DNA from: Escherichia phage VpaE1_ev035
Sequence record: LR699048
Direction: 5' to 3' (one strand)
Length of the DNA: 64,000 nucleotides
The notes beneath the pieces were generated by a model. The model was not told where the DNA came from. It did no database searches and was given only the letters and a program-made list of their open reading frames with translations. Below are positions 4,138 through 31,866 of the stretch, piece after piece (the stretch's first letter is position 1; each line of letters opens with the position of its first letter). The translations under genes and the position numbers were made by a program.

Positions 4138-4810
4138 TGAAGTACTGTGCCATGCTTACGACTTGCACCCTCATGAGTTAGGTCTTGATTCCTGTGTATG
4201 GACTCCAGAACAGTGCAGGGATTTTGAAGATACTGCAAGAGAAGTTGTATGTTCACTTGAAGAGTTCCACACATCAGAACCAATTGTGAGCGTTGTGGAC
4301 AAAGAGACTGGACAAACTGTAGGCGTAAGGCGTGACAGCTTAGTCATAGTCAATAAAGACCTTGTAGAAAAAGGTAACCTTATCTTAGCAGACATTGATG
4401 GTGTTCTTACAAATTTTAATCACGAAGATTACTCAACGGAATTGATTGATGGGTCATTTTCACAGTACACTAATTTGCTTGACTCTGTAAGTGCAAAGCC
4501 AACGTATGTTTTCAATATCATTGATGCAATTGCTAATCATGCTGCCATTGGACTCTTGACAGCTAGAGGTGAATCTCAGAGAATCCCTACTGAGATGTTT
4601 TTAAGGCATTACATAGAGCATGATTACATGCTTTTTATGCGTGGTTTTGGAACTAACTCTATAAATGCAGAAAGTTTGAAAGTGAGGATGATTCAGTCTT
4701 GCATTCTTCCTTACTTTAATATAGTATGCTTTATAGAAGATACAGAGAAGAATGTTCAGAAGGTAAACAGAATCCTTCCACACATTAAAACCATGTTAGT
4801 TAAACATTGA
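4115..4810 (+). CDS. HAD-superfamily hydrolase-like protein (possible nucleotidase/phosphatase)
   Basis: ORF track; motif ADIDGVLT resembles HAD motif I (DxDG[TV]), LLTARG motif II-like; start uncertain (overlaps upstream gene). Confidence 0.4.
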   Translation: MKKLRKSDEVLCHAYDLHPHELGLDSCVWTPEQCRDFEDTAREVVCSLEEFHTSEPIVSVVDKETGQTVGVRRDSLVIVNKDLVEKGNLILADIDGVLTNFNHEDYSTELIDGSFSQYTNLLDSVSAKPTYVFNIIDAIANHAAIGLLTARGESQRIPTEMFLRHYIEHDYMLFMRGFGTNSINAESLKVRMIQSCILPYFNIVCFIEDTEKNVQKVNRILPHIKTMLVKH

Positions 4811-24649: not shown

Positions 24650-26065
24650 ATGAGCGAATTATTTAAACATGCGCACCTTCATGCAGGTCGAACTGAAAAT
24701 GGTGCTGTAAACCATACTTCATCAATGTCTGCTCTTGTAGACTTTTACAAAGCTGCTGGTTCTAGCCGTAGCAACGTAGAAATCTTACCAGACCTGTTCT
24801 ACAAAGCTTTGCGTGAGGATGTTGATGTTGCAGTTCGTATTTTGCTTCATATGCGAGATGTACGAGAAGGTATGGGTGAGCGTAAAGCCTTCAGAACTGT
24901 TTTGCTTCAAGCAATTGAAGATAAAGTTTTAGAGCCTACACAGGTTCTTCGCATTATGGATAAGATTGCAGAACTTGGTCGTTTTGATGACTTCAAAATC
25001 TTCGTAGGTACTCGTTTCGAGACAGATGCCTTCAAACATTTAGAAGCAGCATTACTAGACCCTGCAACAGCAGGTTTGGCAGCCAAGTGGCTACCACGAG
25101 TCAAACCACGTCATAAGCAGTTTGTAAAACGTTTCTGCAAGTTTGCCAACTTGAGTGAGAAAGAGTACCGCACACTGTTGTCTGCACTATCTGATACAGT
25201 TGAGCAAAAAATCTCTGCTAATGAGTTTGGTAAGATTGACTACAGTAAGATTCCTTCACTTGCTGCTGCACGTTACCAAAACCTGTTTAACCGTAAAGAT
25301 GGAGAGCGTTACAAAGCTTACATCGAGTCCTTATCAAAAGGTGAGACTAAGATTAACGCTGGTGCTGTTTACCCATACGATGTGATTAAATCTGTCAAGT
25401 ATGGTAATGCAGATGTTGCTAATGAGCAGTGGAAATCACTACCAAACTGGATGGCAGAAGGTGAAAACATCTTGTGTATGTCTGATGTATCAAGTTCAAT
25501 GTCTTGGGTGAATTTTGGCTCCATTACTGCTCTGGATATTGGTGTATCACTTGCCTTGTATGTAGCAGAACGCAATACAGGTTGCTTTAAGGATGAGTTG
25601 ATGGTTTATTCAACAAACCCTCACTTCATCGAACTGAGTGGTGATTTACGAAACCGTCATCGTCAGGTGATGCGACACGTTGAATATGGCTCAACCAACT
25701 TACAAGCAGCTTTTGACCGCATTCTTGAGATAGGTAAGAGAAACAACTTGACTCAGGAAGATATGCCAAGTAAGCTTATCATCTTCTCCGATATGGAGTT
25801 CAATCAGGTTGATGGAGCTAACGGTCGTACAAACTTTGAAGCAATTCAGAGCAAGTACAAGAAAGCTGGATATGAGATGCCACAACTGGTATTCTGGTAC
25901 TTAGCAAACCGTAATGGTACTTGCGAAGTGTCTGTTAAGGATAACGGTGTAGCAATGGTATCTGGTTTCTCTCCCGCCACTTTAAAAGCTCTGCTTGGTG
26001 GTGAGAAGTTTGACCCAATCAGCGTAATGCTCAAAGCAGTAATGATTGACCGTTATATCTGGTAA
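24650..26065 (+). CDS. vWA (MIDAS) domain protein with N-terminal helical domain; candidate Ro60/TROVE-like or DUF2828-like protein
   Basis: C-terminal half carries the vWA MIDAS signature in order: CMSDVSSSM (DxSxS), GSTNLQAAF (GxT), LIIFSDMEF (D); N-terminal ~250 aa predicted helical; TROVE assignment is an inference from architecture only. Confidence 0.55.
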   Translation: MSELFKHAHLHAGRTENGAVNHTSSMSALVDFYKAAGSSRSNVEILPDLFYKALREDVDVAVRILLHMRDVREGMGERKAFRTVLLQAIEDKVLEPTQVLRIMDKIAELGRFDDFKIFVGTRFETDAFKHLEAALLDPATAGLAAKWLPRVKPRHKQFVKRFCKFANLSEKEYRTLLSALSDTVEQKISANEFGKIDYSKIPSLAAARYQNLFNRKDGERYKAYIESLSKGETKINAGAVYPYDVIKSVKYGNADVANEQWKSLPNWMAEGENILCMSDVSSSMSWVNFGSITALDIGVSLALYVAERNTGCFKDELMVYSTNPHFIELSGDLRNRHRQVMRHVEYGSTNLQAAFDRILEIGKRNNLTQEDMPSKLIIFSDMEFNQVDGANGRTNFEAIQSKYKKAGYEMPQLVFWYLANRNGTCEVSVKDNGVAMVSGFSPATLKALLGGEKFDPISVMLKAVMIDRYIW

Positions 26066-26083
26066 AAAGTTTTAAAAAGGGTA

Positions 26084-26112
26084 TTGACAATGTGTTTAAT
26101 ACCCTTTAATAT
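26084..26112 (+). promoter_or_regulatory. sigma70-like promoter (TTGACA-N17-TAATAT) embedded in a palindrome, upstream of the tRNA array
   Basis: -35 26084-26089, -10 26107-26112; inverted repeat AGGGTAT/ATACCCT brackets the -35 and spacer. Confidence 0.5.
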
Positions 26113-26174
26113 GTTCTACATAGAAACGAAATGAGAGCTTTTCTAAGATACTGAAAAATATTTTAAAAAAGTTC

Positions 26175-26203
26175 TTGACAATCACTAAAAAATAATGTTA
26201 AAG
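26175..26203 (+). promoter_or_regulatory. possible second promoter (TTGACA-N17-TTAAAG, weak -10)
   Basis: Consensus -35 at 26175-26180, poor -10. Confidence 0.25.
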
Positions 26204-26230
26204 TGGTTACATAGAGTTTGAAAAGTTTAT

Positions 26231-26307
26231 CTCTGTTTAGCTCAGCTTGGTAGAGCGTTCCGTTTGGGGCGGTAAGGCCGGAGGTTCAAGTCCTCCAACA
26301 GAGACCA
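26231..26307 (+). tRNA. tRNA-Pro (anticodon UGG)
   Basis: Manual cloverleaf: acceptor CTCTGTT/AACAGAG (C1-G72), D-arm AGCTCAGCTTGGTAGAGC, loop UUUGGGG, T-arm GGAGG-TTCAAGT-CCTCC, encoded CCA. Confidence 0.75.
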
Positions 26308-26314
26308 AATTAAT

Positions 26315-26392
26315 GTTCCAGTGGACAAAATGGTAAAGTCACCACTCTTTCAAAGTGGATATTTGAGGGTTCAAATCCCTTCTGGAACGCCA
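26315..26392 (+). tRNA. tRNA-Glu (anticodon UUC)
   Basis: Acceptor GTTCCAG/CTGGAAC, anticodon stem CCACT/AGTGG with loop CUUUCAA, T-loop TTCAAAT, CCA. Confidence 0.75.
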
Positions 26393-26397
26393 GTTTT

Positions 26398-26475
26398 GAC
26401 AGAAGACCAATTACAGCAAGTTTAATCTTATTCATCTGAAGGTAAATCGGACAAAGAAGAGATTTGGTCTGGTCA
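26398..26475 (+). ncRNA. conserved structured tRNA-spacer element, copy 1
   Basis: 5' box GACAGAAGACCAATTACAGCAAG and 3' box TTTGGTCTGGTC fold as lower helix GAC/GUC, internal loop AGA opposite G, upper helix AGACCAA/UUGGUCU; ~43-nt apical region. Confidence 0.45.
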
Positions 26476-26483
26476 TTAAGAAT

Positions 26484-26560
26484 TGCGGGTATAGAGAAAT
26501 GGCGTCTCACATGTCTCATTAGCATGGTATCGGCAGGTTCGACTCCTGCACCCGCCTCCA
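26484..26560 (+). tRNA. tRNA-Met or Ile2 (anticodon CAU), non-canonical 1:72 pair
   Basis: Anticodon stem CATGT/GCATG, loop CUCAUUA; T-arm GCAGG-TTCGACT-CCTGC; acceptor pairs 6/7 with position 1 unpaired; CCA. Confidence 0.55.
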
Positions 26561-26564
26561 ATTT

Positions 26565-26629
26565 TGCAGAAGACCGTATTCAGCAACAAAATACTTTTTG
26601 CGGATAAAAGAAAAAACACGGTCTGGCAA
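26565..26629 (+). ncRNA. conserved structured tRNA-spacer element, copy 2
   Basis: 5' box TGCAGAAGACCGTATTCAGCAAC, 3' box ACACGGTCTGGCA; lower helix UGC/GCA (compensatory vs copy 1), same AGA/G internal loop, upper helix AGACCGU/ACGGUCU. Confidence 0.45.
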
Positions 26630-26637
26630 TGTATTAA

Positions 26638-26714
26638 GGTTAGGAAGCACATAAGGTATGTGCGGTCGCCTGTTAAGCGAATGGCACAGGGTTCGAATCC
26701 CTGACTAACCGCCA
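26638..26714 (+). tRNA. tRNA-Asn (anticodon GUU)
   Basis: Acceptor GGTTAGG/ACTAACC, D-stem GCAC/GTGC, loop CUGUUAA, T-arm CAGGG-TTCGAAT-CCCTG, CCA. Confidence 0.75.
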
Positions 26715-26783
26715 AATTTAGGAGAGAAGCGATTGCTCACCGATTTGTAAGGTGCAAGTCCTTAGCCTGAATAGAAATTAAAT

Positions 26784-26871
26784 GTGTCGTTATCCCGTAG
26801 ATGGTAGCGGTGGGGACTGTAAATCCCTTGTCATTGAGACTCGGTAGGTTCGACTCCTACACGGCACACCA
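26784..26871 (+). tRNA. tRNA-Tyr (anticodon GUA), long variable arm
   Basis: Acceptor GTGTCGT/ACGGCAC, anticodon stem GGGA/TCCC with loop CUGUAAA, ~16-nt variable arm, T-arm GTAGG-TTCGACT-CCTAC, CCA. Confidence 0.7.
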
Positions 26872-26876
26872 ATAAA

Positions 26877-26954
26877 GGTTATGTAGTTTAATTTGGTTAA
26901 AATACTCCCCTGTCACGGGAGATGATGAGGGTTCAAATCCCTTCGTAACCGCCA
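26877..26954 (+). tRNA. tRNA-Asp (anticodon GUC)
   Basis: Acceptor GGTTATG/CGTAACC, anticodon stem CTCCC/GGGAG with loop CUGUCAC, T-loop TTCAAAT, CCA. Confidence 0.75.
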
Positions 26955-27012
26955 ATTTTGAGAGGGCTATTTAGCCCCTCCCTTAAAGGGTTCTTACGAG
27001 TATCCTTTAAAG

Positions 27013-27092
27013 GAGCAGAAGACCAAATACAGCAAGTTACTTAAAATTTCAAGCCAATTTAATTTTGAAAAATTTAAAACTTGGTCTGGCTC
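27013..27092 (+). ncRNA. conserved structured tRNA-spacer element, copy 3
   Basis: 5' box GAGCAGAAGACCAAATACAGCAAG, 3' box CTTGGTCTGGCTC; lower helix GAGC/GCUC, AGA/G internal loop, upper helix AGACCAA/UUGGUCU. Confidence 0.45.
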
Positions 27093-27097
27093 AACAA

Positions 27098-27236
27098 ATT
27101 TACAGAAGACCGTTTACAGCAAAACTTAAACAATCTATTTCTCGGTAAAGAAAAGGCGAAGGTTCGATTCCTTCACTCGGCAGATGTCGAGTTGGTGTAA
27201 TGGTAGCACTTAAGATGATAAACAACGGTCTGGTAA
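27098..27236 (+). ncRNA. conserved structured tRNA-spacer element, copy 4, enclosing a circularly permuted tRNA-like module (Y RNA/YrlA-like architecture)
   Basis: 5' box TTTACAGAAGACCGTTTACAGCAA, 3' box AACGGTCTGGTAA (lower helix UUAC/GUAA, upper helix 8 bp); apical region 27158-27210 holds T-arm GAAGG-TTCGATT-CCTTC, then acceptor 3' strand ACTCGGC joined by a short loop to acceptor 5' strand GTCGAGT, then D-arm GTG-TAATGGTAG-CAC; no anticodon arm. Confidence 0.45.
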
Positions 27237-27382
27237 TTATCTTTGTAGATAAGTTATTAAGCTTACCTGTGAGTATGCGACCACAAAGGGTGAAAGGGTA
27301 AATTCTAGATTTAAACCCAAAAAGGCACATCGCTACAGACCTTAAGCAAGTCTGGGTAGCTTATCTACAAAGATAATTTAAT

Positions 27383-27458
27383 GGAAGTGTAGCAGAATGG
27401 TGATGCGGCAGACTTTTAATCTGACAGGCGATGGGTTCGAATCCCTCCACTTCTACCA
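27383..27458 (+). tRNA. tRNA-Lys (anticodon UUU)
   Basis: Acceptor GGAAGTG/CACTTCT, loop CUUUUAA, T-loop TTCGAAT, CCA; T-stem has mismatches. Confidence 0.6.
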
Positions 27459-27462
27459 ATAT

Positions 27463-27539
27463 GGTTCAGTCGCAGATAAGGTAATGCAAGGGTCTCGTAA
27501 GCCCTATGAATGTGGGTTCGAATCCCATCTGAACCTCCA
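27463..27539 (+). tRNA. tRNA-Thr (anticodon CGU)
   Basis: Acceptor GGTTCAG/CTGAACC, anticodon stem AGGGT/GCCCT with loop CUCGUAA, T-arm GTGGG-TTCGAAT-CCCAT, CCA. Confidence 0.7.
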
Positions 27540-27541
27540 AT

Positions 27542-27616
27542 TGTGGGTTAGCATAAATGGTAATGCAAACGGCTGATAACCGTTAGAAGAGGGTTCGATA
27601 CCCTCACCTACAACCA
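27542..27616 (+). tRNA. tRNA-Ile (anticodon GAU)
   Basis: Acceptor TGTGGGT/ACCTACA, anticodon stem AACGG/CCGTT with loop CUGAUAA, T-arm GAGGG-TTCGATA-CCCTC, CCA. Confidence 0.7.
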
Positions 27617-27631
27617 AGTTCAATAAAGTTG

Positions 27632-27660
27632 TTGACATTGAGATGTGACTACTTTATAGT
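27632..27660 (+). promoter_or_regulatory. sigma70-like promoter inside tRNA array (TTGACA-N17-TATAGT)
   Basis: -35 27632-27637, 17-nt spacer, -10 27655-27660. Confidence 0.5.
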
Positions 27661-27864
27661 AACCTTAGTTTTCGTTGCGTAGCGTCTATTTTGCAAATTT
27701 AAAATAAATGCAAACGACAATGTTTTTCTGGCAGTAGCTTGATAGGCTAAACACCAGTGAGGTCTTCCAATCCCTCATCAAAGAATTTGGCGTACTCGCC
27801 CACGGTATGATTAATAAGGTGGGCATCTTTAAGGGCTTTCTAAGAGAGTCTTTAAAGATAATTA

Positions 27865-27946
27865 CGGGGCGTATCTCAGCGGTCTTCTAAACCGCCGTTA
27901 ACCGAGTAAGTGGAGTATGCGGGTTCGAGTCCTGCCGCCTCGACCA
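27865..27946 (+). tRNA. tRNA-Arg-like (anticodon UCU) with aberrant D-arm and enlarged variable region
   Basis: Acceptor CGGGGCG/CGCCTCG, anticodon stem GCGGT/ACCGC with loop CUUCUAA, T-arm GCGGG-TTCGAGT-CCTGC, CCA; D-region does not fold canonically. Confidence 0.45.
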
Positions 27947-28089
27947 ATTTAGTTAGCAGATTACTTAGACGACCTAAGCGGGTCTTCCTGTAGGGAGGTG
28001 GTCTGTATCTCATGTTTTCCAGAACATGTAAATAATCTGAGAAGGGGCTTTACAGTGTTGAGATAATACGGTAAGCTTCGAATTATAGT

Positions 28090-28172
28090 ATGGGACGATG
28101 TTAAGACTCTAAGGCATGAGCAACGGCCTCCAAAACCGTTTCAAAGGGGTTCAACTCCTCCGTCCCATGCCA
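28090..28172 (+). tRNA. tRNA-Trp (anticodon CCA) with expanded D-region
   Basis: Perfect 7-bp acceptor ATGGGAC/GTCCCAT, anticodon loop CUCCAAA (as in E. coli tRNA-Trp), T-loop TTCAACT, CCA; ~6 extra nt before the anticodon stem. Confidence 0.5.
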
Positions 28173-28185
28173 AAGTCTTATTAGG

Positions 28186-28275
28186 GGTAGGTAGCGGCTA
28201 ATGGTAGCCAAACTGTCTTGAAAACAGTTGCCACTGTAGAGATACGGTGAGGGTTCGACTCCTTTACTTACCGCC
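28186..28275 (+). tRNA. tRNA-Ser (anticodon UGA), long variable arm, CCA apparently not encoded
   Basis: Acceptor GGTAGGT/ACTTACC, D-stem GGC/GCC, anticodon stem ACTGT/ACAGT with loop CUUGAAA, long variable arm, T-loop TTCGACT. Confidence 0.6.
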
Positions 28276-28531
28276 TAATAAGATTTAAAGCCAAGCTTCA
28301 TTCGGATGTTGCTTTGGTATCCCTCGTGTATTGTCGTACACGCACAGTAAAGCACCTAGTAGGTGTCACGGAGAAGAGATAATATCAAGCTCTCCAAAGG
28401 TTCTAGTCACCGGATTAAACAAGACTATGCAAAGACCAAATTAGGTCTTTTTAGAGGGCTTCTAAGGTTATTACAGCTTGTTGTGGAACCTTGTTGCTTA
28501 GGTTCTTAGAAGTTCTCTAAAAAGATTTAAT

Positions 28532-28609
28532 GGGAGATTGATGGTAATTGGTAAACCTATCTCGCTTAGAACGAGATGTTTGAGGGTTCGAATCCCTTGT
28601 CTCCTACCA
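28532..28609 (+). tRNA. tRNA with Leu anticodon UAG but short variable arm (type-I architecture)
   Basis: Acceptor GGGAGAT/GTCTCCT, anticodon stem TCTCG/CGAGA with loop CUUAGAA, 5-nt variable loop, T-arm GAGGG-TTCGAAT-CCCTT, A73, CCA. Confidence 0.55.
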
Positions 28610-28616
28610 AATTAAT

Positions 28617-28692
28617 GCAGGTGTAGCAAAATGGTTATGCGGCTGACTCTTAATCAGTAAGACGATGGGTTCAATTCCCTCCACCTGTACCA
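28617..28692 (+). tRNA. tRNA-Lys (anticodon CUU)
   Basis: Acceptor GCAGGTG/CACCTGT, anticodon stem GCTGA/TCAGT with loop CUCUUAA, T-loop TTCAATT, CCA. Confidence 0.55.
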
Positions 28693-28698
28693 AAAAAT

Positions 28699-28774
28699 GG
28701 GGTCATAGTTTATATGGTTAAAATTCGAGTTTTGCAAACTTGGGAACTGAGTTCAATTCTCAGTGACTCCACCA
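28699..28774 (+). tRNA. tRNA-Ala (anticodon UGC)
   Basis: Acceptor GGGGTCA/TGACTCC, loop UUUGCAA, T-arm CTGAG-TTCAATT-CTCAG, CCA. Confidence 0.7.
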
Positions 28775-28780
28775 ATTAGT

Positions 28781-28855
28781 GCATCCATAGTTTAAACGGG
28801 AAAATTACAGTCTTCCAAACTGAGGTTGAGGGTTCGATTCCCTCTGGATGCTCCA
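28781..28855 (+). tRNA. tRNA-Gly (anticodon UCC)
   Basis: Perfect acceptor GCATCCA/TGGATGC, loop CUUCCAA, T-arm GAGGG-TTCGATT-CCCTC, CCA. Confidence 0.75.
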
Positions 28856-28861
28856 AATAAT

Positions 28862-28937
28862 GCTCCTATCGTATAATTGGCTATTACGGTTGCCTTGTAA
28901 GCAACTTATCAGGGTTCGAATCCTTGTGGGAGCACCA
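28862..28937 (+). tRNA. tRNA-Thr (anticodon UGU)
   Basis: Acceptor GCTCCTA/TGGGAGC, anticodon stem GTTGC/GCAAC with loop CUUGUAA, T-arm CAGGG-TTCGAAT-CCTTG, CCA. Confidence 0.75.
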
Positions 28938-29032
28938 ATTCAGAGGTCAAGTGAAAGACCGCTGGTGTCAACTGAAGACCGTAACAAATTCCACGGAGTT
29001 GAGTTAGCGGCACAACTTCAGACCTCTTTCAC
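28938..29032 (+). ncRNA. candidate structured RNA between tRNA-Thr(UGU) and tRNA-Val
   Basis: Multiple complementary segments (GAGGTC/GACCTC, GTGAAAG/CTTTCAC, CTGAAG/CTTCAG); contains a GAAGACCG box related to the spacer elements; no tRNA fold. Confidence 0.3.
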
Positions 29033-29107
29033 ACTCGCTTAGTTTATATGGTAAAACATCACCCTTACAAGATGAAGAAAAAGGTTCAAGTCCTTTAGTG
29101 AGTACCA
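29033..29107 (+). tRNA. tRNA-Val (anticodon UAC)
   Basis: Acceptor ACTCGCT/AGTGAGT, loop CUUACAA, T-arm AAAGG-TTCAAGT-CCTTT, CCA. Confidence 0.65.
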
Positions 29108-29108
29108 T

Positions 29109-29186
29109 GTTCCAGTATCCCAATTGGCAGAGGATGCAAGCTCAAACCTTGTACTAGTGACGGTTCGAATCCGTCTTGGAACACCA
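29109..29186 (+). tRNA. tRNA with Leu anticodon CAA but short variable arm (type-I architecture)
   Basis: Acceptor GTTCCAG/TTGGAAC, anticodon stem GCAAG/CTTGT with loop CUCAAAC, T-arm GACGG-TTCGAAT-CCGTC, A73, CCA. Confidence 0.55.
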
Positions 29187-29191
29187 ATTTT

Positions 29192-29267
29192 GCAGGATTA
29201 GTTCAAATGGATAGAGCAACAGTCTACGAAGCTGTTAATAGGGGTTCGAATCCCTTATCCTGCACCA
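29192..29267 (+). tRNA. tRNA-Arg (anticodon ACG)
   Basis: Perfect acceptor GCAGGAT/ATCCTGC, D-arm GTTCAAATGGATAGAGC, loop CUACGAA, T-arm AGGGG-TTCGAAT-CCCTT, CCA. Confidence 0.8.
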
Positions 29268-29285
29268 GATAAGCAAGAGGAATTT

Positions 29286-29528
29286 ATGCAAACATTAATC
29301 GTCGTTGAACATGAAAATTCCAATAGTATTGAGTTTGTAAGGGTTCCCACTATAGATACCCACATTTTCTTAAAAGTCGGATGGGAATGCGACCCAATAA
29401 AAGTAGAAAGATTTATTGGTCATTGCTTTGGTGGAAGACAACTTAAAAGTGTCAATTTTGAGACAATGTTACCAGAAAGCTCAGAAACAAGTAATAATGC
29501 TTACCTCCTTACGAGGGTTAGACAATGA
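29286..29528 (+). CDS. hypothetical protein (inside tRNA array)
   Basis: ORF track, ATG with AGAGG RBS. Confidence 0.4.
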   Translation: MQTLIVVEHENSNSIEFVRVPTIDTHIFLKVGWECDPIKVERFIGHCFGGRQLKSVNFETMLPESSETSNNAYLLTRVRQ

Positions 29529-30082
29529 GATACTTAAAATATGCTTCATGGATTTTCTTAGCTTTGCTAGAACCACTTGCAGCAATACTAGCAGTTATCT
29601 TAGCACCTTTCGTAGTTCCATTCTACAGTGAGAAGAAAGGACATCTACCTTTTGGATTCAGATGGATGGAGACCTATGACAACCCAATTGATGGTGATGA
29701 AGGTCACGTTAAAAGATGGGCTAATATTAGATGGATTGGTAAACTAGGTGTCTACATGCAAAGAGTTGGATGGCTCTGGAGAAACAAAGCTTATAACTTC
29801 TCTTACCATGTGTTAGGAAGAGATGTAAAAGATGTTACTAAGTGGAAAGGTAATATCAACGTAAGTTCTAACCCTGAAGATAATCAGACTGGTTATCTCC
29901 TAATGTGGAACAGGAATGCTTGGGGATTATTCGCTTTTATCCCATCAATTAAAATCTTTGGTAAACAATTTTACTGGAGAATTTATATTGGATGGAAACT
30001 AAAAAGTGTTGTCCCAGAAGAAAGAGCATTCTCAAGGGAAAGAGTTATGTTGGCATTCTTTATTCATCCACTGAGAAAGTAA
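29525..30082 (+). CDS. hypothetical membrane protein (inside tRNA array)
   Basis: N-terminal hydrophobic segment IFLALLEPLAAILAVILAPFVV; Trp-rich. Confidence 0.45.
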   Translation: MRYLKYASWIFLALLEPLAAILAVILAPFVVPFYSEKKGHLPFGFRWMETYDNPIDGDEGHVKRWANIRWIGKLGVYMQRVGWLWRNKAYNFSYHVLGRDVKDVTKWKGNINVSSNPEDNQTGYLLMWNRNAWGLFAFIPSIKIFGKQFYWRIYIGWKLKSVVPEERAFSRERVMLAFFIHPLRK

Positions 30083-30090
30083 AGATTTAA

Positions 30091-30166
30091 AGGGGATTAG
30101 TTTACAAGGTTAAAACCTCGGTCTTTGAAATCGAAGAAGTTGGTTCAATTCCAACATCCCCCGCCA
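30091..30166 (+). tRNA. tRNA-Gln (anticodon UUG)
   Basis: Acceptor AGGGGAT/ATCCCCC (1:72 unpaired), anticodon stem TCGGT/ATCGA with loop CUUUGAA, T-arm GTTGG-TTCAATT-CCAAC, CCA. Confidence 0.65.
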
Positions 30167-30168
30167 AT

Positions 30169-30247
30169 GCTCCATTACTCCAATTGGCAGAGAGGCCAGA
30201 CTTAAAATCTGTGTTATGTATCGGTTCGAATCCGATATGGAGTACCA
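30169..30247 (+). tRNA. tRNA with Leu anticodon UAA but short variable arm (type-I architecture)
   Basis: Acceptor GCTCCAT/ATGGAGT, anticodon stem CCAGA/TCTGT with loop CUUAAAA, T-arm ATCGG-TTCGAAT-CCGAT, A73, CCA. Confidence 0.55.
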
Positions 30248-30252
30248 AATTT

Positions 30253-30328
30253 AGCGGTATAGCATAACTGGCAATGCAGCAGTCTCTGAAGCTGTCTTAT
30301 TAAGGTTCAAATCCTTATGCCGCTGCCA
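30253..30328 (+). tRNA. tRNA-Gln (anticodon CUG)
   Basis: Acceptor AGCGGTA/TGCCGCT, anticodon stem GCAGT/GCTGT (two G-U pairs) with loop CUCUGAA, T-arm TAAGG-TTCAAAT-CCTTA, CCA. Confidence 0.6.
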
Positions 30329-30359
30329 CTTCTAAGGGTTCTTACGAGAGTCCTTAAAT

Positions 30360-30435
30360 GTGGCCTTATCATAAATGGTAATGACCCATGCTGTGAACAT
30401 GGTCTATACGGGTTCAAATCCCGTAGGTCACCCCA
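30360..30435 (+). tRNA. tRNA-His (anticodon GUG)
   Basis: Acceptor GTGGCCT/AGGTCAC, perfect anticodon stem CCATG/CATGG with loop CUGUGAA, T-arm ACGGG-TTCAAAT-CCCGT, discriminator C73, CCA. Confidence 0.75.
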
Positions 30436-30440
30436 ATTTA

Positions 30441-30517
30441 TAGTCCAAGTAGCTTATATGGTTAAAGCGCGTGTCTGAAAAACATGAGAAGAGGGTTCAA
30501 ATCCCACTGGACTACCA
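30441..30517 (+). tRNA. tRNA-Phe (anticodon GAA)
   Basis: Acceptor TAGTCCA/TGGACTA, anticodon stem CGTGT/ACATG with loop CUGAAAA, T-loop TTCAAAT; exact ends uncertain. Confidence 0.6.
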
Positions 30518-30533
30518 ATTTCAAAGGTGCTTA

Positions 30534-31268
30534 ATGAAAGAGATGACAGAACAAGGTAAGGAGATTTTTAATCTCTTAAAAACTGGTAAAGGGTTCTCTA
30601 ATCCCCTTATTACTGGTGCAGCAGTTCTCGGTGGAACCGTAGCTGCCTCTATATCACTTGTAAGCTCTATTAGCTCTGTAACAGACCCTACAATAAAAGA
30701 TAAACTTGTTGCTGCTGGACTTACAACAGTTCTGCTTAACAGCTTTACAACGAGTCTGACAAGCACTACATCAACTACCAAAACGCTAACGGATTATGGT
30801 CAAAAATCCATTGATGAGTTTTCATCACGTATGCAGGTAGCAAAAGGTTATTCTAATGTTATGGGTGCAGCAGGGGAGCAAGTTGGTTGTACACCGTTTA
30901 GTGGTATTATGGGCGTTGCTACAGAATATGGTCAAAAAGCTATTGACACAATTAACAGTGCACTAGATGGCGTTAATGATGTGTTAAGTGACTTACAAGA
31001 TGCTATTGATAATGGTCTTGATACTGTTTCTGATTTAGCTAACCAAGCTGTCAGTAAGATTAATGAAGGTATCTCAAAGATTACAGCTTATGCAGATGAA
31101 GTTGTGCAGATGATTGAAGAAGAGGCTGCCCTTATTGCAGAGTACCTTAAAACGAATATCAATGGGTTCTTAGCAGGTATCTTACCAGACTGGTTTGATG
31201 ATGCCTGTAAAACTGGTGTAATTGACACTATTGCAACACCAGAAATGAAGAGCGCATTACAGAAATAA
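30534..31268 (+). CDS. hypothetical protein (inside tRNA array)
   Basis: ORF track frame 30471..31268 starts inside tRNA-Phe; first ATG after the tRNA at 30534; Ser/Thr/Ala-rich with helical C-terminus. Confidence 0.5.
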   Translation: MKEMTEQGKEIFNLLKTGKGFSNPLITGAAVLGGTVAASISLVSSISSVTDPTIKDKLVAAGLTTVLLNSFTTSLTSTTSTTKTLTDYGQKSIDEFSSRMQVAKGYSNVMGAAGEQVGCTPFSGIMGVATEYGQKAIDTINSALDGVNDVLSDLQDAIDNGLDTVSDLANQAVSKINEGISKITAYADEVVQMIEEEAALIAEYLKTNINGFLAGILPDWFDDACKTGVIDTIATPEMKSALQK

Positions 31269-31269
31269 T

Positions 31270-31360
31270 GGAAGATTAACCCTAAAAGGTAAGGGAGCAG
31301 TTTGCTAAACTGCCAGTAGCTGAGAAATCGGTGTACCAGTTCAAGTCTGGTATCTTCCTC
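31270..31360 (+). tRNA. tRNA-Ser (anticodon GCU), long variable arm
   Basis: Perfect acceptor GGAAGAT/ATCTTCC, D-stem CCC/GGG, perfect anticodon stem GCAGT/ACTGC with loop UUGCUAA, ~20-nt variable arm, T-arm ACCAG-TTCAAGT-CTGGT, CCA. Confidence 0.8.
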
Positions 31361-31367
31361 CAATTTT

Positions 31368-31443
31368 GAATCCGTGACAGAAATGGATATGTGCCTGTCT
31401 GCAAAACAGGTTTATAAGGGTTCAAGTCCCTTCGGATTCTCCA
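31368..31443 (+). tRNA. tRNA-Cys (anticodon GCA)
   Basis: Perfect acceptor GAATCCG/CGGATTC, perfect anticodon stem CCTGT/ACAGG with loop CUGCAAA, T-arm AAGGG-TTCAAGT-CCCTT, CCA. Confidence 0.8.
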
Positions 31444-31480
31444 AGTTATTTTACTCTCTCTCAATTAAAATAATAATAAT

Positions 31481-31541
31481 GCCCTGCTATAAGTATTCTT
31501 CCTTTCGCTACCGAAGAGTATTTTTAGACAGGGCTTTTTTA
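31481..31541 (+). terminator. terminator at end of tRNA array (long hairpin + T6)
   Basis: GCCCTG ... CAGGGC stem enclosing a ~40-nt loop, then TTTTTT. Confidence 0.5.
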
Positions 31542-31665
31542 CAGAGTTATACTTTATAGGAAGACTTATACAGTATGTCTCTGACGTACATTGTGGTTTC
31601 TCCTTGACGGTCTCTGTGCCGTCTTTTTTAAGGGGAAACAAGATTAATTATTTGGAGAAAACATA

Positions 31666-31866
31666 ATGAGCGAGAACGTTTATAAAGAACTTTATGAAGC
31701 TAACAAGAAGTTAGAGTTTATGCAGAATACTATCATGGCAATTGCAGATAGATTATCTGTAGCAACAGGTATTGATATTCAAGAAGCGTCTATGGATGCA
31801 CTTCTTGATGCTGTTGATGCAAAGTTCGAAGTTAAGAAAGAAGAGACTGCTACAGACTCTGAATAA
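31666..31866 (+). CDS. hypothetical small acidic protein upstream of terminase
   Basis: ORF track, 66 aa. Confidence 0.4.
   Translation: MSENVYKELYEANKKLEFMQNTIMAIADRLSVATGIDIQEASMDALLDAVDAKFEVKKEETATDSE

Follow-up and report, generated by a model that had tools for sequence, protein, structure and literature searches.

The 64,000-nucleotide (nt) stretch of Escherichia phage VpaE1_ev035 analysed here (sequence record LR699048; hereafter the window) carries a dense array of transfer RNA (tRNA) genes between positions 26231 and 31443. Judged by nucleotide identity and gene order, this array is the tRNA cluster of Felixounavirus, the Felix O1-like myoviruses of E. coli and Salmonella, and it very probably serves the phage as both a supplement to the host tRNAs and a reserve for when they fail. 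ARAGORN finds 25 tRNA genes in the window, all on the + strand, with the first start at 26231 and the last end at 31443, which are exactly the limits given in an original prediction made from the letters alone. That prediction counted about 27 tRNA genes; 25 are standard, and the remaining two are non-canonical tRNA-like genes.

The cluster has been known since 2009-2010. Felix O1 was described with 22 tRNAs and a discussion of codon usage (PMC3185647), wV8 with 23 (PMC2674420), and other Felixounavirus members with 17-23 (PMC8300805); tRNA genes were considered rare in myoviruses with genomes below 100 kb (Whichard et al., PMC3185647). A 5.8-kb query covering the region is 95-97% identical at the nucleotide level to more than 200 Felixounavirus records (including LF82P3 and EC6). 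Matches were obtained in 409 records in all, with identities of 80-99%, and 222 of these cover at least 80% of the query. The relatives share one order, namely a DUF2828 gene, tRNA blocks with two or three small open reading frames (ORFs), a 66-aa ORF, and the gene for the terminase large subunit. By ARAGORN they hold 23-26 tRNA genes, with gains and losses; REP12, for instance, has the same array, in which the Asp and Arg(ACG) genes are not found by this program.

Composition of the tRNA array

The standard genes, each called by ARAGORN, are as follows (Rfam scores in bits).

26231-26307, + strand: tRNA-Pro (TGG); 57.7 bits; CCA encoded
26315-26392, + strand: tRNA-Glu (TTC); 59.3 bits; CCA encoded
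26484-26560, + strand: tRNA-Met (CAT), atypical, loop CTCATTA; 31.6 bits
26638-26714, + strand: tRNA-Asn (GTT); 48 bits
26784-26871, + strand: tRNA-Tyr (GTA), class II with a long variable arm, clean cloverleaf; 29.6 bits on the Rfam tRNA-Sec model only
26877-26954, + strand: tRNA-Asp (GTC); 65.2 bits
27383-27458, + strand: tRNA-Lys (TTT); 54.4 bits
27463-27539, + strand: tRNA with CGT anticodon (Thr by anticodon); 55.6 bits
27542-27616, + strand: tRNA-Ile (GAT); 63.4 bits
28186-28275, + strand: tRNA-Ser (TGA), the sole standard gene without a full CCA; 33.2 bits
28532-28609, + strand: tRNA-Leu (TAG); 44.7 bits
28617-28692, + strand: tRNA-Lys (CTT); 56.9 bits
28699-28774, + strand: tRNA-Ala (TGC), with G3.U70 and A73; 56.9 bits
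28781-28855, + strand: tRNA-Gly (TCC); 59.6 bits
28862-28937, + strand: tRNA-Thr (TGT); 58.4 bits
29033-29107, + strand: tRNA-Val (TAC); 60 bits
29109-29186, + strand: tRNA-Leu (CAA); 43.6 bits
29192-29267, + strand: tRNA-Arg (ACG); 61.1 bits
30091-30166, + strand: tRNA-Gln (TTG); 56.6 bits
30169-30247, + strand: tRNA-Leu (TAA); 47.5 bits
30253-30328, + strand: tRNA-Gln (CTG); 58.7 bits
30360-30435, + strand: tRNA-His (GTG), with T at -1 and C73; 53.3 bits
30442-30517, + strand: tRNA-Phe (GAA); 45 bits
31270-31362, + strand: tRNA-Ser (GCT); 46.2 bits
31368-31443, + strand: tRNA-Cys (GCA); 56 bits

At the gathering score, Rfam returns 24 tRNA matches (E 1e-6 to 6e-12), comprising 23 of the ARAGORN genes and one extra at 27865-27943 (31.7 bits). 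These 23 genes show the canonical cloverleaf, with a 7-bp acceptor stem and D, anticodon, and T arms, by both methods. The Met gene at 26484-26560 was called by ARAGORN and also scored in a regional Rfam search, and the Tyr gene was called as a tRNA by ARAGORN only. Chance is ruled out as a source of these detections. All 25 anticodon loops have seven nucleotides with U33, and 24 of them have a purine at position 37, the exception being the U37 of the atypical tRNA-Met. As had been predicted, nearly all members encode CCA (24 of the 25 standard genes and both non-canonical RNAs), and in many places the spacers between tRNAs are only 1-7 nt.

The standard genes account for 19 amino acids, with no gene for Trp and a single one for Arg (ACG). 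The claim that all 20 amino acids are covered thus holds for 19, the twentieth resting on the non-canonical Trp-like gene at 28090-28172. There are two anticodons each for Gln, Lys, Ser, and Thr, and three for Leu (TAG, CAA, and TAA, in agreement with the original prediction). Each four-codon box for Leu-CUN, Val, Ser-UCN, Pro, Thr, Ala, and Gly has a tRNA with U at position 34 (U34), and CGN is served by ACG instead. Every two-codon box is covered by one tRNA, with additional C34 species for Leu, Gln, and Lys. The anticodons therefore make up a decoding set both minimal and complete, with one tRNA for each codon box and a bias toward U34.

Second isoacceptors had also been proposed for five amino acids, and those for Gln, Lys, and Ser stand. 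The one for Arg (TCT) belongs to a non-canonical RNA, and the one for Thr (CGT) has a different origin. Gene 27463-27539 differs from its counterpart in EC6 at exactly one base, A35G in the anticodon (CAT to CGT); the counterpart reads CAT in nine of the nine relatives scanned with ARAGORN, and no copy identical to the VpaE1_ev035 gene occurs among 251 related records with this gene. Because it lies one base from a CAT tRNA and has no identical copy, the second Thr isoacceptor is, on sequence comparison, a point variant, private to this phage, of a conserved tRNA of the Met or Ile2 type. The A35G change itself could be a true identity-changing mutation or a sequencing error. Overall, the original prediction is partly confirmed, and its interpretation is partly supported.

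Three further standard genes have unusual features. The tRNA-Met at 26484-26560 combines a U1-C72 mismatch, as in initiators, with U37 in place of a purine and an anticodon stem without the G-C run, and is possibly a tRNA of initiator type whose loop has been altered. The Felix O1 counterpart of the tRNA-Tyr was labelled 'pseudo' (PMC3185647). In the tRNA-His (30360-30435), the T at -1 faces C73, and the enterobacterial-type G-1 is therefore not encoded.

Codon usage and the role of the array

Codon usage was compared between 66 phage ORFs (15,676 codons) and the annotated genes of E. coli K-12. Third codon positions have a GC content (GC3) of 0.32 in the phage, compared with a host value of 0.57. 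Codons exactly matched by phage anticodons are enriched over E. coli, 2.9x for CTA, 2.8x for TTA, 2.8x for CCA, 3.6x for ACA, 2.7x for TCA, and, by relative synonymous codon usage (RSCU), 19x for AGA. The mean log2 ratio is +0.36 for codons exactly paired to phage anticodons and -0.36 for all others. The set would fit the AT-rich phage codons and add to the host's scarce tRNAs (those for CUA, UUA, CCA, ACA, UCA, and AGA), and could act as a reserve when host tRNAs are missing, depleted, or cleaved.

Expression of the array is predicted to depend on the host. The host's RNA polymerase, acting at sigma-70-type promoters, would yield a few polycistronic precursors, and host enzymes such as RNase P would cut these into single tRNAs with CCA already encoded. 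We infer both this operon layout and the codon-usage match for VpaE1_ev035. The remaining elements of the putative operon are as follows.

26084-26204 (starts 26084 and 26175), + strand: two tandem sigma-70-like promoters before the first tRNA; TTGACA-17-TAATAT, 10/12, and TTGACA-18-TAAAGT with upstream TG, 10/12
27632-27660, + strand: internal sigma-70-like promoter, TTGACA-17-TATAGT, near-consensus (11/12); an annotated promoter in ASO1A and ASO1B
29286-30082, + strand: two small ORFs within the array, of 80 aa (PHROG 14202) and 185 aa (DUF7338)
30534-31268, + strand: ORF of 244 aa (DUF7217) within the array, a membrane protein or holin in the annotation of relatives
31606-31623, + strand: terminator-like hairpin followed by a T run, 3' of the array

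Experiments on relatives have revealed what such tRNAs can do. E. coli Syn61-delta-3 is missing the serT and serU tRNAs; of the 12 phages that infect it, eight are Felixounavirus members (REP phages) and depend on a viral tRNA-Ser(UGA) (PMC12269064; PMC13596443). In the related REP phages, the homologue of the window's Ser-TGA gene has been proven by experiment to be this viral tRNA-Ser(UGA) (PMC13596443). One phage tRNA, at least, thus stands in for a tRNA that the host lacks. The authors of the study on Bas63, also a Felixounavirus, view its tRNA genes as a conditionally useful toolbox (PMC11482910). Together, the Syn61-delta-3 and Bas63 results argue for a supplement-and-reserve role rather than for independence from the host.

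Several observations weigh against this role. The codon-usage match is weak statistically (one-sided Mann-Whitney p = 0.078). Late genes, whose codon usage had been suggested as a check on the anticodon set, are matched no better overall, with an exact-match fraction of 0.50 in structural genes versus 0.52 in the others. AGA is the sole exception, at 25 per 1000 codons in the structural block (31888-55385) versus about 10 elsewhere (2.5x). Yet AGA, the most host-discordant codon, has no canonical tRNA here and among the phage RNAs could be read only by the one at 27865-27946. The tRNA genes of Bas63 proved mostly non-essential when four E. coli hosts were used (PMC11482910), and any benefit is therefore conditional.

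A serious rival, which we consider plausible though not the favoured account, is that the array works chiefly as a counter-defence. In this case, tRNAs destroyed by host shut-off or by anticodon nucleases (PrrC, PARIS, retron-associated, VapC, or colicin-type) would be replaced with phage tRNAs that these nucleases do not recognise, and the codon match would be secondary (PMC10264068). A complete one-per-box set that includes tRNAs for well-read host codons (GAA, AAA, GAC) exceeds what codon compensation needs, and the dispensability seen in Bas63 fits conditional use. Phage-borne tRNAs are reported to evolve to avoid host defence RNases (PMC13596443), loop changes like the U37 of the tRNA-Met, which also has the 1-72 mismatch, have been linked to nuclease evasion (PMC10264068), and the Bas63 homologue (gp130) of the neighbouring Ro60-like gene counters the ppl defence system (PMC11482910). 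On the other hand, the 24 standard genes other than this tRNA-Met have ordinary anticodon loops, U34 is preferred in line with the AT-rich phage codons, and the literature examined shows no tRNA-targeting defence that is overcome by a Felixounavirus tRNA. Counter-defence is not separable here from codon compensation.

The original prediction read the full set as a strong decoupling of the phage from the host tRNA supply. This is overstated, and a translation largely independent of the host pool appears improbable. The set is formally complete if U34 reads whole four-codon boxes and both non-canonical RNAs decode, and the viral tRNA-Ser(UGA) alone rescues infection in the absence of serT and serU (PMC12269064; PMC13596443). 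However, the Trp and Arg(UCU) RNAs have an aberrant or missing D arm, and their decoding is only putative. No phage tRNA reads 24% of the phage codons if U34 wobble is strict, a share that falls to about 8.7% if U34 also reads U and to about 5.5% if it reads U and C, the remainder being mainly GGT and GGC. Modified U34, as in tRNAs with cmo5U, can read this widely. Even under such generous wobble, GGT and GGC (5% of codons), ATA, and CGG stay uncovered. The variable gene content among close relatives (23-26, with the Asp and Arg(ACG) genes of REP12 not found by ARAGORN) and the largely dispensable tRNA genes of Bas63 also speak against independence, and host synthetases for charging and host modification enzymes are still required.

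Felix O1-type tRNA clusters have an established practical importance: with the viral tRNA-Ser(UGA), phages overcome E. coli that was recoded to be 'virus-resistant'. The finding as originally stated adds little to this, and the putative tRNA mimics interleaved with the standard genes could matter more.

Putative tRNA mimics and structured RNAs within the array

The RNAs below lie between the standard genes, apart from the protein gene, which is directly upstream of the array.

24650-26065, + strand: Ro60-like protein gene, 471 aa (DUF2828 and DUF7788/vWA)
26398-26474, + strand: Y-RNA-like element 1 (repeat families, fold)
26566-26627, + strand: Y-RNA-like element 2 (repeat families, fold)
27013-27092, + strand: Y-RNA-like element 3 (repeat families, fold)
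27100-27236, + strand: Y-RNA-like element 4, with a circularly permuted tRNA-like core (fold, 8-phage consensus structure)
27236-27377, + strand: conserved long-stem structured RNA of about 140 nt, no family assigned (arms 27236-27253 and 27360-27377)
about 27666-27864, + strand: mRNA-like RNA, apparently derived from transfer-messenger RNA (tmRNA), after its own promoter at 27632; tag frame 27710-27745
27865-27946, + strand: non-canonical tRNA-like RNA with UCU loop (TCT RNA); Rfam tRNA 31.7 bits; not called by ARAGORN
27947-28089, + strand: conserved spacer, nearly invariant across three genera
28090-28172, + strand: non-canonical tRNA-Trp-like gene (CCA); best score 23 bits, on the Rfam tRNA-Sec model; not called by ARAGORN

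Neither the TCT RNA nor the Trp-like RNA forms a canonical cloverleaf. The TCT RNA has a 7-bp acceptor stem (C1-G72, G2-C71, G3.U70), A73, a T arm, a CCA end, and an anticodon-like loop CUUCUAA with U33 and A37 on a 5-bp stem, but only 7 nt where a D arm is expected and a variable region of 23 nt. G3.U70 and A73 are alanine identity marks, and the phage's own tRNA-Ala bears both, as does the TCT RNA. Copies at least 95% identical occur in 116 records and copies at least 99% identical in 75; the anticodon stem exists in four compensating versions, the loop and all else being invariant. A stand-alone copy with its own promoter is found in the 348-kb Salmonella jumbo phage SE_PL (locus L012, 2505-2587), and scans of IMG/VR for a wider spread of the TCT RNA and the tag returned only Ounavirinae-sized contigs. 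In VpaE1_ev035 the RNA occupies the site of the canonical tRNA-Arg(TCT) seen in LF82P3, CHB7, Sf17, and Mordin, a gene that it replaces in roughly half of the genus Felixounavirus. Its origin as a remnant left by deletion within tRNA-Arg(TCT) was considered and rejected, as the acceptor stem is different yet self-complementary and the anticodon stem covaries; the near-identical copies in 75 records and the promoter-driven copy in the jumbo phage rule it out as well.

The Trp-like RNA features A1-U72, G73, a CCA end, U33, A37, and the anticodon loop CUCCAAA, exactly as in E. coli trpT. The D arm is aberrant, its loop lacking GG, and there are mismatches at C31-A39 and A49-C65. Over 15 nt, the anticodon arm agrees exactly with the canonical tRNA-Trp of Erwinia phage Tian, and the anticodon stem is fully compensatory between genera (ACGG/CCGT versus TAAG/CTTA), a four-pair change by which a chance match was rejected. 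Since the TCT and Trp-like RNAs are conserved with compensatory changes in their anticodon stems, both are real conserved genes. We infer that they are functional RNAs, with the decoding of AGA and UGG only putative.

These data also bear on whether many members of the array are decaying pseudogenes or neutral leftovers of transfer, with the non-canonical genes, Met, Tyr, and Ser-TGA non-functional. This is most improbable: covariance scores are low (Met 31.6, Ser-TGA 33.2, and TCT RNA 31.7 bits, with Tyr and the Trp-like gene below the tRNA threshold), tRNAscan flagged two 'pseudo' tRNAs in Felix O1 (PMC3185647), and genes are gained and lost among relatives, but the low scorers are conserved across three genera, both non-canonical RNAs have fully compensatory anticodon stems and invariant loops, the TCT RNA is maintained nearly unchanged, with a promoter of its own in the unrelated jumbo phage SE_PL, and Ser-TGA is experimentally functional in REP phages (PMC13596443).

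Relatives in Mooglevirus, Suspvirus, and Kolesnikvirus carry RNAs of 120-165 nt adjoining tRNA-Arg(TCT), with a 7-bp acceptor stem, a T arm, a CCA end, and an enlarged core with covarying hairpins (L004 2331-2451, L003 2323-2442, L008 2924-3044, and L009 ~4249-4415). A search of the 165-nt RNA of Erwinia phage Tian against Rfam gave no tRNA or tmRNA match. The position of these RNAs relative to the tag RNA varies. In VpaE1_ev035 the tag RNA is followed on its 3' side by the TCT RNA, and in LF82P3 by a normal tRNA-Arg(TCT) alone. In CHB7, Sf17, and Mordin the order is tag RNA, tRNA-Arg, and then a 121-nt RNA with acceptor stem, T arm, and CCA end, and in Tian the 165-nt tRNA-like RNA precedes the tag RNA.

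The tag RNA is conserved in all Ounavirinae sampled. Its frame opens with a GCA resume codon (GCA AAC GAC ...) and encodes ANDNVFLAVA, with an Ala-rich hydrophobic C-terminus, followed by two stops; AAAAUAAAU ahead of the frame agrees with the tmRNA model, as does the start GCAAACGAC. In 41 loci there are four nucleotide versions and three tag peptides, most substitutions being synonymous, and two hairpins covary. The tag of the Erwinia phage, ANDAQFLAVA, differs from ANDNVFLAVA by five synonymous changes (stop codon counted) and two non-synonymous codons, in keeping with coding constraint. The Rfam tmRNA match is partial (16 bits, E 2e-4 in a 601-nt search) and lies below the gathering scores, at 16 versus 47 bits for RF00023 and 14.7-31.4 versus 47 for RF04321. 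The tag RNA has no tRNA-like domain in standard or permuted form, as it lacks an acceptor strand. A permuted 'tmRNA*' called by ARAGORN in Mordin (L008 2060-2809) was rejected as a single gene because it joins a Y-like core to the tag across tRNA-Lys, tRNA-Met, and tRNA-Ile. For Moogle, 'ssrA' calls by ARAGORN had been noted briefly (PMC4319497), and an exhaustive tmRNA survey of 2014 does not list the Ounavirinae phages with the tag RNA (PMC4131195).

The ORF directly upstream of the array belongs to PHROG 850 ('RNA-binding protein') and matches DUF2828, DUF7788, and weakly VWA_2 in Pfam, with TROVE not among the matches; a phmmer search against PDB sequences gave no Ro60 match. Its AlphaFold2 (AF2) model (pLDDT 86.9, pTM 0.86) nevertheless has the Ro60 fold, a HEAT-repeat ring with a C-terminal vWA domain. 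The best 10 Foldseek matches in the PDB are all Ro60, Rsr, or TROVE proteins, including the Ro60 of phage phiLo, over the full length with TM scores of 0.5-0.67.

The four Y-RNA-like elements lie 0.3-1.2 kb downstream of this ORF on the same strand, within the 4 kb expected of YrlA RNAs. In all four, a 5' CAGAAGACC..UACAGCAA pairs with a 3' GGUCUGG to form the closing stem. In element 4, this stem surrounds a tRNA-like module with the topology of YrlA (PMC4201824), in the order T arm (27158-27174), looped acceptor-like hairpin (27175-27192), and D arm (27193-27209). Three pairs of the acceptor-like stem show compensatory changes in the consensus structure of eight phages, and in phage ASO1B the element was miscalled by tRNAscan as an intron-containing tRNA-Thr-GGT. 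The GNCGAAN0-1G motif of YrlA is absent near the 5' end, where GAAGACC..UACAGCAA is conserved instead. A GGCGAAG was rejected as this motif, as it overlaps the T stem away from the 5' end and reads GGAGAAG in REP12 and GAGAGAAG in Mordin. Rfam gave no match to a Y RNA or YrlA family in 25900-31700 at E values up to 5, and the elements are assigned as Y-like from their structure, context, and covariation. On these grounds the four elements are candidate Y RNAs of YrlA-like topology accompanying a Ro60-fold protein, with Ro60 binding hypothetical.

A similar layout exists outside the group. An unrelated 143-kb phage contig (Logan SRR10097265) encodes a DUF2828 homologue 52% identical to the Ro60-like protein, and has a promoter, four GAAGAnnUACAGCAA elements (two with permuted tRNA-like cores), and then 14 tRNAs (L044 7441-8130). 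Its elements carry the same UACAGCAA motif as the Y-like elements of the window. In Vibrio phage phi-pp2, the DUF2828 homologue lies 3.4 kb from nine tRNAs.

It is conceivable, although rather unlikely, that the extra tRNAs and the gaps of the array together hold conserved tRNA mimics for RNA quality control or ribosome rescue, made up of the TCT RNA, the promoter-driven tag RNA, and the four Y-like RNAs with their Ro60-fold protein. If so, the TCT RNA and the tag RNA could form a split phage-encoded trans-translation system or, alternatively, a device that hijacks or blocks host tmRNA-SmpB. Should the TCT RNA decode AGA, it could insert alanine or arginine at the most host-unlike codon of the late genes. 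Three leads on phage manipulation of translation and RNA surveillance come from the gap RNAs: a putative alanine-identity tRNA-like RNA bearing an arginine anticodon, a tmRNA-type tag RNA detached from any tRNA-like domain, and a Ro60-like protein with actual candidate Y RNAs.

Other gaps were also inspected. The 18-nt arms of the RNA at 27236-27377 pair over a long range and covary between genera. The 69-nt spacer between tRNA-Asn and tRNA-Tyr (26715-26783), only about 9 nt long in ASO1A and bumzen, contains a T-arm-like hairpin, AAGGTGCAAGTCCTT, and may be the remnant of a lost tRNA. Long hairpins occur in the gaps 28276-28531 and 28938-29032, where genes for HNH or PD-(D/E)XK endonucleases are inserted in relatives.

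Comparison with known systems

The array resembles those of Felix O1, wV8, and other Ounavirinae in its genes, their order, a nucleotide identity of 94-97%, and the low-scoring Met and Tyr, and it differs in the private A35G change (CAT to CGT) of VpaE1_ev035. In a wider frame, clustered tRNAs on the same strand with short spacers are shared with other AT-rich lytic phages, namely T4, T5, vibriophages of the KVP40 type, and the cluster C mycobacteriophages. Codon compensation and resistance to tRNA depletion have been proposed as roles of such arrays (PMC10264068). A DUF2828/Ro60-like gene near a tRNA array is likewise shared with unrelated large phages. Unlike that of T4, the array of VpaE1_ev035 is denser, with 25-27 genes in an 86-kb genome, and comes close to a complete one-per-box set.

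Organelles and Mycoplasma have minimal sets of about 25 species, with a U34 tRNA for each four-codon box and one tRNA for each two-codon box. The phage set differs from these in supplementing a full host complement, and four-codon reading by its U34 tRNAs would depend on host modification.

A parallel to the locus as a whole is found in the cluster C mycobacteriophages (Bxz1, ET08, Rizal), which have a large tRNA array, Ro60, a YrlA Y RNA, and a tmRNA (PMC4201824; PMC4131195; PMC10264068). Here, a tRNA array, a Ro60-fold protein, Y-like RNAs with a permuted tRNA-like core, and a tmRNA-type tag frame likewise occur at one locus. In contrast to the mycobacteriophages, the protein here matches DUF2828/DUF7788 and not Pfam TROVE, the Y-like RNAs lack the conserved GNCGAA motif near the 5' end, and the tag RNA stands outside any tRNA-like domain, with a score far short of the tmRNA threshold. 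The TCT RNA is in turn comparable to the tmRNA of mycobacteriophage DS6A, which consists of the tRNA-like domain (TLD) only: both are short, with an acceptor stem bearing G3.U70 and A73, a T arm, and a CCA end, and both lack a D stem and a tag frame (PMC4131195; PMC11915505). Unlike the DS6A RNA, the TCT RNA retains an anticodon arm of tRNA-Arg type with an invariant UCU loop, stands at the site of tRNA-Arg(TCT), and is scored by Rfam as a tRNA rather than a tmRNA; its charging with alanine and binding of SmpB are hypothetical. As for the Y RNAs, the Bas63 study (a 2024 preprint) guessed that some annotated tRNAs might belong to this class (PMC11482910), whereas the candidates presented here are intergenic elements that lie between the annotated tRNAs.

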